A DNA stretch of 64,000 nt from a virus, in IMG/VR virus record IMGVR_UViG_3300014208_000031, positions 64,001 to 128,000 of that record; one strand, given 5' to 3'. Made by a program: the position numbers and the translations under genes. Below, piece after piece: positions 51,290-55,359 of this stretch (positions are counted from its first letter, which is position 1; every line of letters starts with the position of its first letter). Below the pieces are notes generated by a model. The model was not told where the DNA came from and did not search any database. It saw only the letters and a list, made by a program, of their open reading frames with translations.

Positions 51290-51751
51290 TTACTTTAAAG
51301 GGTCTATTCCGTTATCTTTTAATTTTTTATATTCTTTTAGTTTTTTAAACGCTACTTTATCCGCCCATTGTTCGCAAATTTTTAAATTATGATATAATTG
51401 CTGCCTTTTAATTGGGTCATTATATTGCTGGATATGGGCAAGTTCATGCCGAGTTGTAAAAACTGCCATACTCCAGAAGTCGCTAAAGGAATATTCACCG
51501 TGGTATCCCGTCCTAAGTTTTTTATCAGAACGAAGAGAAAATTCCAATGGATAGTGTTTTTTATTATAATCAAACCTTAGAATAACGTAAGGAATTGCGT
51601 AGTTACCATAATGAAAATCGCAACTCCAGAAAGTTTTACAATTTTTAACTATTATATCTGTATTATCTAAATTAAGGCTTTTTGGACGGCAAAATTCTAT
51701 AAGTTTTTCTAGCTTTTTGGTGGGAATTCGTGATTTATTGATTAAGGCCAT
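51290..51751 (-). CDS. Zincin-like metallopeptidase
   Basis: RHELAHIQQ followed by CEQWAD. Confidence 0.7.
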   Translation of the reverse strand: MALINKSRIPTKKLEKLIEFCRPKSLNLDNTDIIVKNCKTFWSCDFHYGNYAIPYVILRFDYNKKHYPLEFSLRSDKKLRTGYHGEYSFSDFWSMAVFTTRHELAHIQQYNDPIKRQQLYHNLKICEQWADKVAFKKLKEYKKLKDNGIDPLK

Positions 51752-51845
51752 GAAATTGAGGTTTAAAAGATTTAAGGTGTTGAAGTCTCTAAAACTTATA
51801 TCCTTTTGGATTGACCACTGAAAAAACTTTTAAATTGAGCCGCGT

Positions 51846-51882
51846 AAAAAAATAAAAGCCGGGTTAATTACTCCCGGCCTTT
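51846..51882 (-). terminator. Intrinsic terminator
   Basis: GCCGGG/CCCGGC stem followed by TTTTATTTTTTT on the minus strand. Confidence 0.85.
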
Positions 51883-51885
51883 AAC

Positions 51886-52100
51886 ATAAAACAGGTTGAT
51901 TTCTCAACTAATATGAGTCCCCTTGGATTAGCTCAAATTGGCTAGTCTCAGGCCAAGACACACCTACTCATAACTCTCTTGGTCATGTACGTCTATCCGT
52001 ACTGCTGTTTTATTTTTGCGCAAATCTAACTAATTAAGGATAAAAATCCTGCAACTGTTATAAATTTTGATTTATAAAACATTATTTTATTTAATCTTGC
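51886..52100 (-). ncRNA. Candidate structured ncRNA (unknown family)
   Basis: No ORF longer than about 18 codons; nested multi-stem fold with a GAAA tetraloop; two promoter motifs upstream and a terminator downstream. Confidence 0.6.
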
Positions 52101-52149
52101 ATATTTAATTTACACGTTATCTACAAAATCTATATCCTTTTCCAAAAAA

Positions 52150-52440
52150 TTAAAGACGATATTCTGGTTTTTTAGGAGTATTTTCTTCTTGTCCGGGCGG
52201 CTGCGGAACTCCAAATCTAAACATTTGTTGAAATTGCTGTTGAAGTAACTGCTCTTGAGAAACTTCCTGCTGAATTATCTCAGGTTGATTGGAAGATTTG
52301 ATAAATTGAATTGTGATATTTTCAATTGACCAAAACAATGCAACAAGTATTATTGTTAAACTAATATAAAAAGCTGATTTATTTATTGATTGTTCAGTCA
52401 TATTATTTTGTTTTCTCTGGTTCTTTAGGTTGAATTTCAC
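52150..52440 (-). CDS. Single-TM membrane protein with Gln/Pro-rich tail
   Basis: FYISLTIILVALFW transmembrane segment; QQ and PQPP tail. Confidence 0.6.
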   Translation of the reverse strand: MKFNLKNQRKQNNMTEQSINKSAFYISLTIILVALFWSIENITIQFIKSSNQPEIIQQEVSQEQLLQQQFQQMFRFGVPQPPGQEENTPKKPEYRL

Positions 52441-53011
52441 CCGGCGTTAAATTATAAAACATATATTCTTGTTCTAGACTTTCTGAGCCGCCGCCCTTTT
52501 GACCACTTTCTTTGTCTCCCGGCTGGCCTTTTCCTTTGCCTTTGCCTTTTCCGCCCGATTTACCATTTTTAGTTAATTTTCCAGTAACTTTTTGACCTTT
52601 TTGTAATTTTTCCATTACTTTTTGAAGTTGCTCATGTAAATTTCTAGAATAAGGTAATCTAAACATTCTAGGTTCGTTTTTGTCGCTTTCGTATTTTAAC
52701 ATTTTAAAAAATTGATTGTCGTAATTACTTTTTACACTATCTAATGTAAGATAAATTGCGCCTTTTTGACCTAAATTTTTATTTGGTTCTTTGATATTAG
52801 CGGCGACAATCGTTACAACTTCTGGCATACCACTATCGTCCGCCGCCCAGCCGAGGAAACTGTCTAGGCCGGAAAATACTCCAACCGTGAACAAGCAAAA
52901 GAGTGAAGTCATTAAAATCTTAAAAATCGCGTGGACTTTTGACTCAACTAATAACCAAAAAATTATTCCGCCGAGAAAAAGAAGGCTGAAATAGATTGAA
53001 AAAGGTATCAT
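52403..53011 (-). CDS. Two-TM membrane protein with soluble domain and Gly/Lys linker
   Basis: Two N-terminal hydrophobic helices; EPR.FRLPY; GKGKGKG. Confidence 0.7.
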   Translation of the reverse strand: MIPFSIYFSLLFLGGIIFWLLVESKVHAIFKILMTSLFCLFTVGVFSGLDSFLGWAADDSGMPEVVTIVAANIKEPNKNLGQKGAIYLTLDSVKSNYDNQFFKMLKYESDKNEPRMFRLPYSRNLHEQLQKVMEKLQKGQKVTGKLTKNGKSGGKGKGKGKGQPGDKESGQKGGGSESLEQEYMFYNLTPGEIQPKEPEKTK

Positions 53012-53012
53012 A

Positions 53013-53252
53013 TTAATCTAATCCATCTAAATAATTATTATGAATATGAACTCTTTCTCGAAAATTTTTAATCAATCTTAAAAAATCTTCTTGACCGCTT
53101 GTAAACATAAAGTTTAAAATTAGTTCTAAGCCAAATCTATTTTCCCAAACTTGACTAAATCTAAACATTTCTTGACCATCATATTCAATAATATAAAATC
53201 TATCAAAATATTTAATTAGGAATTTCCCTATTTTACAATTTGGCGCTCTCAT
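53013..53252 (-). CDS. Hypothetical protein
   Basis: Packed ORF inside the membrane operon. Confidence 0.5.
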   Translation of the reverse strand: MRAPNCKIGKFLIKYFDRFYIIEYDGQEMFRFSQVWENRFGLELILNFMFTSGQEDFLRLIKNFRERVHIHNNYLDGLD

Positions 53253-53256
53253 ATTT

Positions 53257-53871
53257 TTATTGTTCGGCGGATTCTGCCCCGCTAATTACTGCAATTTTCG
53301 CGGGTAATTCATTTGTCTCGGTAACTTCTCCATTTTTATCAAATTTAAATCTAAAAAATGTTTCTTCGTCTCCAGAATGATTAAATACTCTTTCTTTAAC
53401 AATTATTTCTTTAAATGGTTTGATTTTGACTAATTTAACTTTTACCGTTAATGGCCCGGTTTCGCCCGGATACTTTCTGTAGCAATGTCCATTAACTATA
53501 TATTCACCTTCTTTAGTTCCTCTAATTGATATAATTTCTTCGTTAATTTTAACTATTGTTCCGTCAGCGCGCCGATCTGAACTAGCGCCCAAGTCATCCC
53601 TCTTTAAAGCAAATAAACTTCCTTGCCCTCCTTCGCGTCGATTGAACCCGACAATATTCCCGGCGCTGTCTTGCGACCAGAGATCGACATCAGAGGAACT
53701 TTCTGGATTCCACGTCATAACAATTTCATATAATTCAGTTAACTGAATTGAACTATCATTTTTTTTAGTAATAGAGCTAAATGCAAGAATAAGGATAAAA
53801 ACAAGTAAAATATTTGTATGGTAATCAACAAAGGGAATAAGATTAGGTCTAACCTGTCTATAAGTTCTCAT
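53257..53871 (-). CDS. ExbD/TolR-like TM helix fused to a YfaP/DUF2135-like domain
   Basis: NLIPFVD followed by a TM helix; W...DVDLW...RDDLG...NEE.I...GEY.VN.H.Y. Confidence 0.65.
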   Translation of the reverse strand: MRTYRQVRPNLIPFVDYHTNILLVFILILAFSSITKKNDSSIQLTELYEIVMTWNPESSSDVDLWSQDSAGNIVGFNRREGGQGSLFALKRDDLGASSDRRADGTIVKINEEIISIRGTKEGEYIVNGHCYRKYPGETGPLTVKVKLVKIKPFKEIIVKERVFNHSGDEETFFRFKFDKNGEVTETNELPAKIAVISGAESAEQ

Positions 53872-53882
53872 GTTTTATTTAA

Positions 53883-54356
53883 TTAACGGCTTTCATCATT
53901 TTTTAAATTTCTACTAACAATAAATAATTGAGATGAAAGTAAAATAGTACATATTAGTGCAAAAATCGTAGTTATTAACGTTCTTCCAGTTCCCGCCATT
54001 AGCTGTTTCAAAAACTCTGCCGTGTCTCCGCCCTGCGCGAGTGGCAAGGCTTTAACGATTGTGAAGCAAAGTCCCCCGGTCGTTCCGAGCAAACCGAGCA
54101 GCAGGAAGGTTTCTGACATGAAATAAGCTGGTTGTAATCTATGAATATGGCTTTCTGTATCTAGAGGATTTTTGTCAATTAACCAAGATATTCTTCCTAG
54201 CTGAAATGAAAATATTACATATAAAATTAAACAAACTAAGGCTATATATGAGGCGTCGTGTTCTAACATGTATTGAAAAACGCCCTGATAAAAGCCTCCT
54301 ACCGAGGCGGTGAAAATAATAGCGTTAATCACAAACCAGCGAGTAAATGTTTTCAT
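53883..54356 (-). CDS. MotA/TolQ/ExbB proton-channel family protein
   Basis: Four hydrophobic segments; LGLLGTTGGL and LITTIFAL. Confidence 0.7.
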   Translation of the reverse strand: MKTFTRWFVINAIIFTASVGGFYQGVFQYMLEHDASYIALVCLILYVIFSFQLGRISWLIDKNPLDTESHIHRLQPAYFMSETFLLLGLLGTTGGLCFTIVKALPLAQGGDTAEFLKQLMAGTGRTLITTIFALICTILLSSQLFIVSRNLKNDESR

Positions 54357-54357
54357 A

Positions 54358-55359
54358 TTAAGTATTCTTGCTTTTTCTTGTTTCTAGTGGTAATCCCAGT
54401 CTTATTTTAATTTTTTTGGTTAAATAAGAATTAAGATTGACGATTCGCGCAGATTCTTTAAAAGACTTTCCAGAGTCCAAAAGTTCTTTTACTTTTTCAA
54501 ATTTCATTTCTGCTTTTTCATAATATGTTATATGGTTAACATTAATGTTGTCCCATTTCCTCTTCATAATAGGAAGATTGAGTTTTATCGCACATTTCTT
54601 TAGCTCCCTAAGAATCGGGAACTTATGCATAATCAAAATTATACAATTGTCTTTTCGATTGGGTGGAGAAACGCGAACAGTTAAATTAAATATTGATTCT
54701 ATCTTTTCTTTTAGAGCTGCAAAAAAATCGCCCCAATTTTTATGACAACAAACCTGTATTACTACAGTGTTATTTTTTTTCTTATGAATGCATCCGTCGC
54801 CATCTATCAAACCAATTAAAAAAGATAAAAATAAGTCATTGGGTAAACTTTTATAAAACTGGAAGTTTTGTGGTGGATATAGTGTTTTATTCTGCTGTAA
54901 GTCAAATTTATCCTGAATTTTAAAATAGTTTTTATTATCGTTTCCCTGTAATGAAGACTGCACCGAATATTTTATTTCATTTTTATATTCATGCGAATGT
55001 TTGTGTGAATAAAAATTAAACTTAACATTTTCAAAAGCATTCTTTAACCATTCGGTATCTTTTTCATTTACCGAAATACAAATTCCGCCAGACTTAGTAA
55101 AACATCCATCAGCCGCGATAAAACCCATTTGATAATAAGCTAACGGGGTTTCTAGTAAAAGGTTACTTAATTCACATGTTCTATTATATGCTTCGGTGAT
55201 TTCGGGATTCTTTTTTAAGCCTAAACGACGTGCTCTTTTATGAATTGCAACTACAGATCGGTCGGGGAATAATTTAGTTAATTCTTGATGTGTGGCATCA
55301 AAATAGAATTTTCTTAATGTGTTGTCTTCTTCTGTTGTATAGTCTGGATTTTTTGCCAT
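54358..55359 (-). CDS. LAGLIDADG homing endonuclease with N-terminal Myb/HTH-like domain
   Basis: YYQMGFIAADG and FLIGLIDGDG; YT.EED..LR...RS..AI..RA.RLGL. Confidence 0.9.
   Translation of the reverse strand: MAKNPDYTTEEDNTLRKFYFDATHQELTKLFPDRSVVAIHKRARRLGLKKNPEITEAYNRTCELSNLLLETPLAYYQMGFIAADGCFTKSGGICISVNEKDTEWLKNAFENVKFNFYSHKHSHEYKNEIKYSVQSSLQGNDNKNYFKIQDKFDLQQNKTLYPPQNFQFYKSLPNDLFLSFLIGLIDGDGCIHKKKNNTVVIQVCCHKNWGDFFAALKEKIESIFNLTVRVSPPNRKDNCIILIMHKFPILRELKKCAIKLNLPIMKRKWDNINVNHITYYEKAEMKFEKVKELLDSGKSFKESARIVNLNSYLTKKIKIRLGLPLETRKSKNT

Follow-up and report, generated by a model that had tools for sequence, protein, structure and literature searches.

Stable RNAs of unknown function have long been recognized in phage tRNA clusters; examples are RNAs C and D of phage T4 (species 1 and 2; rnaC and rnaD), which are 120 to 140 nt long, lie in the phage tRNA cluster, and have T-arm-like 3′ parts; to our knowledge, neither has been assigned a function. 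Theta ribozymes are minimal HDV-like RNAs in which, as in HDV, the catalytic C is the first position of J4/2 (PMC10879173). YrlA Y RNAs act through the proteins that they bind (PMC4201824). The element described here is a genuine gene encoding a small folded RNA and occurs in many unrelated uncultured phages, and we place it in the context of these systems and of class II tRNAs.

The window copy and its candidate transcription signals

The window, the 64,000-nt stretch of DNA that was analyzed, comprises bases 64001–128000 of a 167,664-nt virus record rated complete, and the genome (167.7 kb) encodes a phage DNA polymerase, a DnaB helicase, and an exonuclease. The element sits in a 398-nt gap (51752–52149) flanked by minus-strand genes, one ending at 52150 and one starting at 51751. 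A preliminary description had placed here a stand-alone structured RNA of about 230 nt with two promoters, no sizeable ORF, and a strong terminator. Both upstream motifs are present (at 52131 and 52109), the longest minus-strand reading frame in 51752–52149 is 19 codons, and the terminator is strong; the structured RNA, however, is shorter, a 128-nt core on the minus strand (51886–52013). Its parts, in the order of transcription, are as follows.

52131–52140, minus strand: AAAG(G/T)ATATA motif, a candidate −10-type promoter or, alternatively, a ribosome-binding-like site (genome-wide enrichment)
52109–52115, minus strand: GTGTAAA motif, a candidate second phage promoter (intergenic bias)
52014–52108, minus strand: putative 5′ leader, A/U-rich and unstructured (z −1.1 for 52014–52149)
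52005–52013, minus strand: 5′ strand of P1, the acceptor-like closing helix, 9 bp with 51886–51894 (position-aware swap test)
51987–52002, minus strand: P2, a D-arm-like hairpin with G.A closure as in class II tRNAs (P1-to-core spacing of 18 nt, as in L114 and L175)
51974–51985, minus strand: shrunken anticodon-position arm, lone pair 51985–51974 and 10-nt loop (covariation)
51982–51977, minus strand: pseudoknot 5′ strand, within the 10-nt loop (covariation)
51966–51973, minus strand: 5′ strand of P3 at the variable-arm position, 8 bp with 51911–51918 (7 of 8 pairs change on both sides)
51959–51965, minus strand: near-invariant linker AGGUGUG (identical in 40 of 41 cores)
51953–51958, minus strand: pseudoknot 3′ strand, pairing with 51982–51977 (covariation)
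51921–51952, minus strand: P4, whose CCU/AGG base is invariant and is followed by a lone pair flanked by two bulged A, then by a variable arm
51911–51920, minus strand: invariant GG junction and 3′ strand of P3 (conservation)
51895–51908, minus strand: P5, a 5-bp hairpin at the T-arm position, with GAAA instead of a T-loop in the window copy
51886–51894, minus strand: 3′ strand of P1, with no encoded CCA after it
51846–51882, minus strand: intrinsic terminator (−16.5 kcal/mol, z −3.9)
51797–51806, minus strand: second copy of the promoter-like AAAG(G/T)ATATA motif, 45 nt before the next gene (51290–51751)

The core folds better than its shuffles (z −2.8), as does the core with its terminator (z −4.3); the 136 nt on the 5′ side (52014–52149) fold no better than shuffles (z −1.1), BLAST of the leader returned chance matches only, and no homolog was found. 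An imperfect inverted repeat that spans the leader (window 52037–52139) is likewise not better than shuffles. The terminator consists of a hairpin (51882–51854) followed by a U tract to 51846, and was missed by one terminator-listing tool, whose limit its 9-nt loop exceeds. The two flanking window proteins belong to no Pfam or PHROG family. Just upstream, window 52150–54356 holds a run of membrane-protein genes with no Pfam or PHROG match at 1e-3, and beyond it a 333-aa ORF (window 54358–55359) has two LAGLIDADG-like motifs seen by eye and is probably a homing endonuclease.

It is plausible from motif statistics that both motifs upstream of the RNA are promoters, and they may mark its starts. 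With one mismatch allowed, AAAGGATATA occurs 38 times in the window versus 17 expected, and its ten exact copies there are all on the minus strand; across the genome, the AAAGGATATA-type motif has 25 exact copies, 16 of them intergenic, and all 16 are co-oriented with the next gene. Examples of AAAG(G/T)ATATA lie at window 22458, 27300, 34800, 38303, and 44753. An ATG follows 7 to 9 nt downstream in 14 of 25 G-type genome copies and in 5 of 15 T-type copies; the copy at 52131–52140 has none at this distance. The motif may thus serve in ribosome binding, or as the −10 element of leaderless messages; we favor the promoter reading because the T variant, which lacks a Shine–Dalgarno sequence, behaves alike (5/15 copies), and this hints that T-type copies are promoters for leaderless mRNAs. 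As for GTGTAAA, 29 of its 49 genome copies are intergenic in a genome that is ≈89% coding, and 27 of these 29 are co-oriented, but an 8-mer containing it is not enriched when one mismatch is allowed (51 versus 58 expected). GTGTAAA is seemingly denser in the plus-strand arm of the genome and is a candidate late promoter.

A family of single-copy RNAs in uncultured phages

Pattern scans of IMG/VR and metagenomes, carried out with successive search patterns that each left another part of the motif unspecified, yielded 42 distinct cores, the window copy included, from ≈21 lineages as grouped by our own judgment. The first true relative, in a 307-kb phage (L006), came from an exact scan for the D-like hairpin and has a closing stem of different sequence in which pairing is retained. 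A covariance model (R1) scores nearly all cores at 52 to 80 bits (window, 67) and chance loci at no more than 26; the identity of the window core to the others is 42 to 68%. The complete carriers are 57 to 315 kb in size, and the GC content of the loci lies between 0.33 and 0.65. Each of 24 records searched holds one copy, and no paralog was found in the window's own genome. Flanks of the members gave no MAFFT alignment.

Searches for described relatives were negative. Neither Rfam nor ARAGORN matches the window element, and when the window and 12 homolog loci were compared with Rfam 15 at gathering and weak thresholds, all hits were due to chance and fell on the terminator. No genuine BLAST match to the element or to four of its homologs turned up in cultured phages or plasmids, and a GTDB pattern scan gave six matches, none with the structure; that pattern covers the CCAAG subtype only, and cellular or prophage copies outside this subtype are possible. 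The family is also undescribed in the literature that we searched, which reached few subscription papers; it may overlap the 10,006 unannotated candidate viral RNA models of PMC10690425. Likenesses to SAM-I, guanidine, glycine, and glmS RNAs, to pistol, twister, and hairpin RNAs, and to group I/II introns, RNase P, type III antitoxins, and 23S rRNA did not hold up: either the words in common are variable among family members or the invariant helix is a different one.

Some copies show evident decay: at L230:1730–1797, L235:3745–3812, and L248:6815–6882, P3 is broken and invariant bases are changed, and L213 is a further decaying copy. The 5′ core segment is repeated in short tandem duplications at L207:2886–2910, L209:478–500, and L213:5230–5260, and in L207 the duplicate forms the P2 hairpin.

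A covarying fold with an invariant pseudoknotted core

The family fold runs, from 5′ to 3′, through P1, P2, a lone pair closing a 10-nt loop, the 8-bp P3, the AGGUGUG linker, a pseudoknot strand, P4, GG, the return strand of P3, an optional 5-bp P5, and the return strand of P1. In 27 aligned cores, 94.1% of the cells are paired and 19 of 24 pairs change on both sides, a count inflated by the kinship of the sequences; none of 500 shuffles does as well, slid controls reach 36 to 47%, and 15 held-out cores agree with the fold. Double-sided change affects seven of the eight P3 pairs. The 6-bp pseudoknot, a pairing used neither by model R1 nor by most search patterns, is paired in 99.4% of cells with double-sided change in five of its six pairs (27 cores), occurs in more than ten sequence versions, and forms all six pairs in 13 of the 15 held-out cores. 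The lone pair at the anticodon position is UA in 14, CG in 11, and UG in 1 of 27 cores, and is paired in all 15 held-out cores. For P1, a free duplex-energy test proved too noisy (5/26) and was replaced by a position-aware swap test, in which 19 of 25 representatives formed a longer closing helix with their own upstream flank than with each of 24 others. These results bear out the earlier proposal of a novel stand-alone structured phage RNA, now a covarying family with no Rfam match, a single copy per genome, and no shared neighboring gene.

The earlier secondary structure holds in part. Its closing stem, GAUAGA hairpin, UAUGAGU/ACUCAUA stem, and GAAA hairpin are all present in the fold. The nested pairing of CUUGG with the second CCAAG, however, is available in 1 of 42 cores (the window only) and costs, as rendered, 17 kcal/mol relative to the nested portion of the fold common to the family, which instead pairs CUUGG with the first CCAAG, in the pseudoknot. 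A UUGGC/GCCAA alternative hairpin would break this pseudoknot and lies outside the family fold. The GAAA hairpin read as a GNRA loop does exist in the window copy but is not conserved, and replaces a 7–8-nt T-loop.

Around the pseudoknot, ≈20 core positions are ≥95% invariant, a figure set partly by the search patterns, of which three blind to different parts were used. A linker-blind scan recovered AGGUGUG intact in 34 loci, with L266 showing a single change, so that linker conservation is not only a search artifact. In P4, the lone pair is G-C in the window copy and C-G or U-A elsewhere, and two invariant AGG triplets, one in P4 and one in the linker, are alternative partners for the CCU, with a triple helix also possible. 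P4 also carries large inserts and therefore works as an expansion site; these contain several hairpins and reach ≈130 nt, the length seen in L170 (L170:659–858, L223:8472–8609, and L245:4959–5061).

A layout probably derived from class II tRNA

The fold maps onto a class II tRNA, with P1 as acceptor, P2 as D arm, the lone pair and its loop as anticodon arm, P3 as variable arm, and P5 as T arm; a D arm and a long variable arm are present in tRNA spacing, and the variable-arm position is capped by a domain with ≈20 near-invariant bases. The P2 loops of the T-arm-bearing members close with G.A and resemble tRNA-Leu D-loops. A T-position arm is kept in seven lineages, and roughly two-thirds of lineages lack P5. 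In L114, L175, L197, L200, and L208, a 5-bp hairpin with a 7–8-nt loop stands 2 nt after P3 and is stacked on P1; the T-arm of L114 is canonical and aligns base for base with Rfam tRNA positions 47–63, with a score that is not significant alone. The window copy shares its P1-to-core spacing with L114 and L175, with the GAAA loop where the T-loop would be. The earlier description did not note the pseudoknot, the invariant core, or the probably tRNA-derived layout, and it stated that the RNA matches no tRNA, although homologs exist with a canonical T-arm.

The RNA also departs from tRNA. The anticodon-position arm is a single pair with a 10-nt loop, the center of which varies and is paired in the pseudoknot, rather than a 5-bp stem with a 7-nt loop; the closing helix is 6 to 20 bp across the family, versus the 7-bp acceptor stem of tRNA; and no CCA is encoded in the window copy or the T-arm-bearing homologs, with CCA addition after trimming possible. 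We infer that the RNA is tRNA-derived but is not a tRNA. Since most lineages lack a T-arm and the window copy lacks a T-loop, tRNA mimicry proper cannot be the conserved function.

Decay of a tRNA would account for this ancestry and for the few visibly decaying copies (L230, L235, and L213), and the element might also be read as a tRNA with an intron, as a mobile repeat, or as a packaging RNA. We regard this whole group as scarcely credible and already largely refuted: the core is under purifying selection across ≈21 lineages, removal of the insert would not rebuild an anticodon arm, and each genome holds a single copy. A packaging role, suggested in the preliminary description, finds no support, with no terminase or portal gene recognized adjacent to the RNA in the contexts inspected.

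The anticodon-position loop, paired in cis much like a codon–anticodon helix, raises the distinctly unlikely prospect that the RNA binds the ribosome directly, as a self-paired tRNA–mRNA mimic or through two purine strands, each like half of a Shine–Dalgarno sequence, and tunes host translation. The invariant AGGUG and AAGG(G/A)G strands are complementary to the 3′ end of 16S rRNA, and AAGGAG is read in two cores. Both purine strands, however, are probably buried in the fold, and the missing CCA, the absence of a T-arm from most lineages, and the one-pair anticodon-position arm further weaken this case.

Genomic context

A tRNA lies within 600 nt of the RNA in 8 of 21 lineages versus 3 of 200 control loci, several copies are found inside arrays of at least 30 tRNAs, and all eight other complete carriers have at least one tRNA-family match. 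ARAGORN found no tRNA near the window copy; the only tRNA that it finds in the window phage is a tRNA-Leu(CAA) at G000:C1:3397–3480. In the tRNA arrays of L224 (2370–2450), L226 (7091–7170), and L238 (6576–6650), the RNA is followed by a further folded element with a T-loop-like hairpin, which neither ARAGORN nor Rfam calls. Within one phage clade (L213 and L215, with L193, L195, and L206 at the same place), the position 30 to 70 nt upstream of the core is occupied in some genomes by a tRNA or T-arm remnant and in others by a plain GC-rich hairpin. In one lineage, a σ70 promoter lies upstream of the core, perfect in L056 (52 nt upstream) and with 10 of 12 matches in L181 and L184. Neighboring proteins, a ParB-like gene product and two unknown ones, are common only within one phage clade; outside it neighbors are unrelated, so that no neighboring gene is common to the family, and 23 other carriers lack the gene that follows the RNA in the window.

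This proximity to tRNA genes recalls theta ribozymes (PMC10879173), and the core could be a new small ribozyme, self-cleaving or ligating, that sits in a tRNA-derived frame and processes phage tRNA arrays or transcripts; we consider this unlikely but well short of negligible. By this account, a new natural ribozyme class would have arisen inside a class II tRNA, the anticodon loop having become paired to an outgrown variable arm, a step that we likewise judge improbable though conceivable, and, with similar doubt, the members might still show the stages from a full tRNA frame to a stripped three-way junction. The ≈65-nt pseudoknotted core with its ≈20 near-invariant junction bases and freely extendable P4 speaks for catalysis, as does a strand order like that of an HDV fold without P3/L3. 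Against it, the fold lacks P3/L3 as well as a conserved single-stranded C that could serve HDV chemistry; P1 encloses the core, so that a cut would not free a neighboring tRNA; the core starts at least 33 nt from any upstream tRNA end, not within 5 nt; and pattern scans gave no circularly permuted forms. The invariant compact core as such fits a ribozyme or a small-molecule aptamer equally well.

An aptamer could act in cis, as a riboswitch-like control of the downstream gene with the adjacent terminator as expression platform in the window, which we hold to be very unlikely. The RNA is always co-oriented with its flanking genes, the next ORF often starts 20 to 60 nt after the core, and in the window a terminator follows the conserved, pocket-like core. 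Yet downstream genes are unrelated across lineages, several copies lie between tRNAs with no gene to control, and the RNA has no consistent position upstream of related genes with an expression platform. The terminator is not a family feature, a terminator-like site being found in 3 of 33 loci, and the next gene of the window has its own promoter-like motif.

The tRNA-like domain, together with TROVE genes in 5 of 16 carrier records, also brings to mind a Y-RNA-like adaptor for Ro60/Rsr, a reading to which we give hardly any weight. TROVE genes are not clearly enriched in carriers (4 of 29 controls have one), never adjoin the RNA (at least 7 kb away), and are absent from six of nine complete carriers, the window genome included; on these grounds Ro60 was rejected as the partner. 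The GNCGAA motif is absent from the minus strand of 51846–52149, and the acceptor is made by the two ends of the RNA, whereas YrlA uses an internal stem-loop (PMC4201824). Ro60/TROVE genes are fairly common in large uncultured phages (carriers G001, G002, G013, G014, and G016; controls G025, G034, G035, and G041).

A proposed function in trans

We tentatively favor, at somewhat less than an even chance, an RNA that acts in trans and whose core, serving as decoy or adaptor, binds a conserved host protein involved in RNA handling. Binding to a host protein is preferred because no phage partner travels with the RNA and the enclosing helix disfavors a processing ribozyme, and a conserved host partner is suggested because the core is fixed across loci of 0.33 to 0.65 GC. 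In the proposed mechanism, a single-copy phage gene would give rise to a stable, nondecoding RNA derived from a class II tRNA and acting in trans, placed in tRNA arrays, behind its own σ70 promoter, or, as in the window, before a terminator, as the genomic contexts indicate. The tRNA-like outer frame, in which the T-arm would be dispensable, may let host tRNA-processing enzymes mature the transcript, release it, and protect it. Covariation shows an anticodon arm cut to one pair, with the 10-nt loop pairing over 6 bp with the domain that caps the variable arm, and a knot whose ≈20 junction bases are nearly invariant while all helices vary freely; this knot would be the putative binding surface for a host tRNA-surveillance, translation, or defense factor during infection. 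A decoy or anti-defense role, raised in the preliminary description, is possible on this analysis.

The family offers a small, easily synthesized test object with a solved secondary structure, ≈20 near-invariant bases, and 42 natural variants, which include minimal forms such as L195 and decaying copies that serve as natural negative controls. Should the RNA prove to be a decoy, its partner would point to a host pathway that widely different phages need to neutralize; should it prove catalytic, it would represent a further class of ribozyme.

Comparison with known systems

RNAs C and D of T4 invite comparison by size and setting, but the T4 region (L192) gave no match to model R1 and lacks the core motif, and homology to rnaC/rnaD was therefore rejected. 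Theta ribozymes share a compact pseudoknot, a place beside phage tRNA genes, and a similar strand order (PMC10879173); the family RNA differs in having no nested double pseudoknot with P1.1, a fixed 7-nt linker where P3/L3 would stand, a J4/2-equivalent junction that reads GG then A with no catalytic C first, and a core that is enclosed by a closing helix rather than flush with a tRNA 3′ end. The YrlA Y RNAs are likewise nondecoding, tRNA-derived, and found in phages too (PMC4201824), whereas the family RNA has no adjacent Ro60 gene or Rsr motif, a different connectivity, and a pseudoknot core. In tmRNA (RF00023), a tRNA-like top half is similarly joined via a variable-arm-like helix to a pseudoknot; the family RNA has a D stem, no tag frame, and no alanine acceptor or CCA, is far shorter, and in the window copy is not matched as tmRNA by ARAGORN or Rfam. 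Finally, class II tRNAs (Leu, Ser, Tyr, and Sec; RF00005) share with the family the order and spacing of the closing stem and D-like arm, the G.A closure, a one-base spacer, a long variable arm, a 2-nt linker, and, where it is kept, a 5-bp T-arm (with a canonical loop in L114). They differ from the family RNA, which has no anticodon stem-loop or encoded CCA, a closing helix of 6 to 20 bp, a T-arm lost in about two-thirds of lineages, and an invariant pseudoknot domain. The family looks like a case of a tRNA converted into a functional RNA of another kind.
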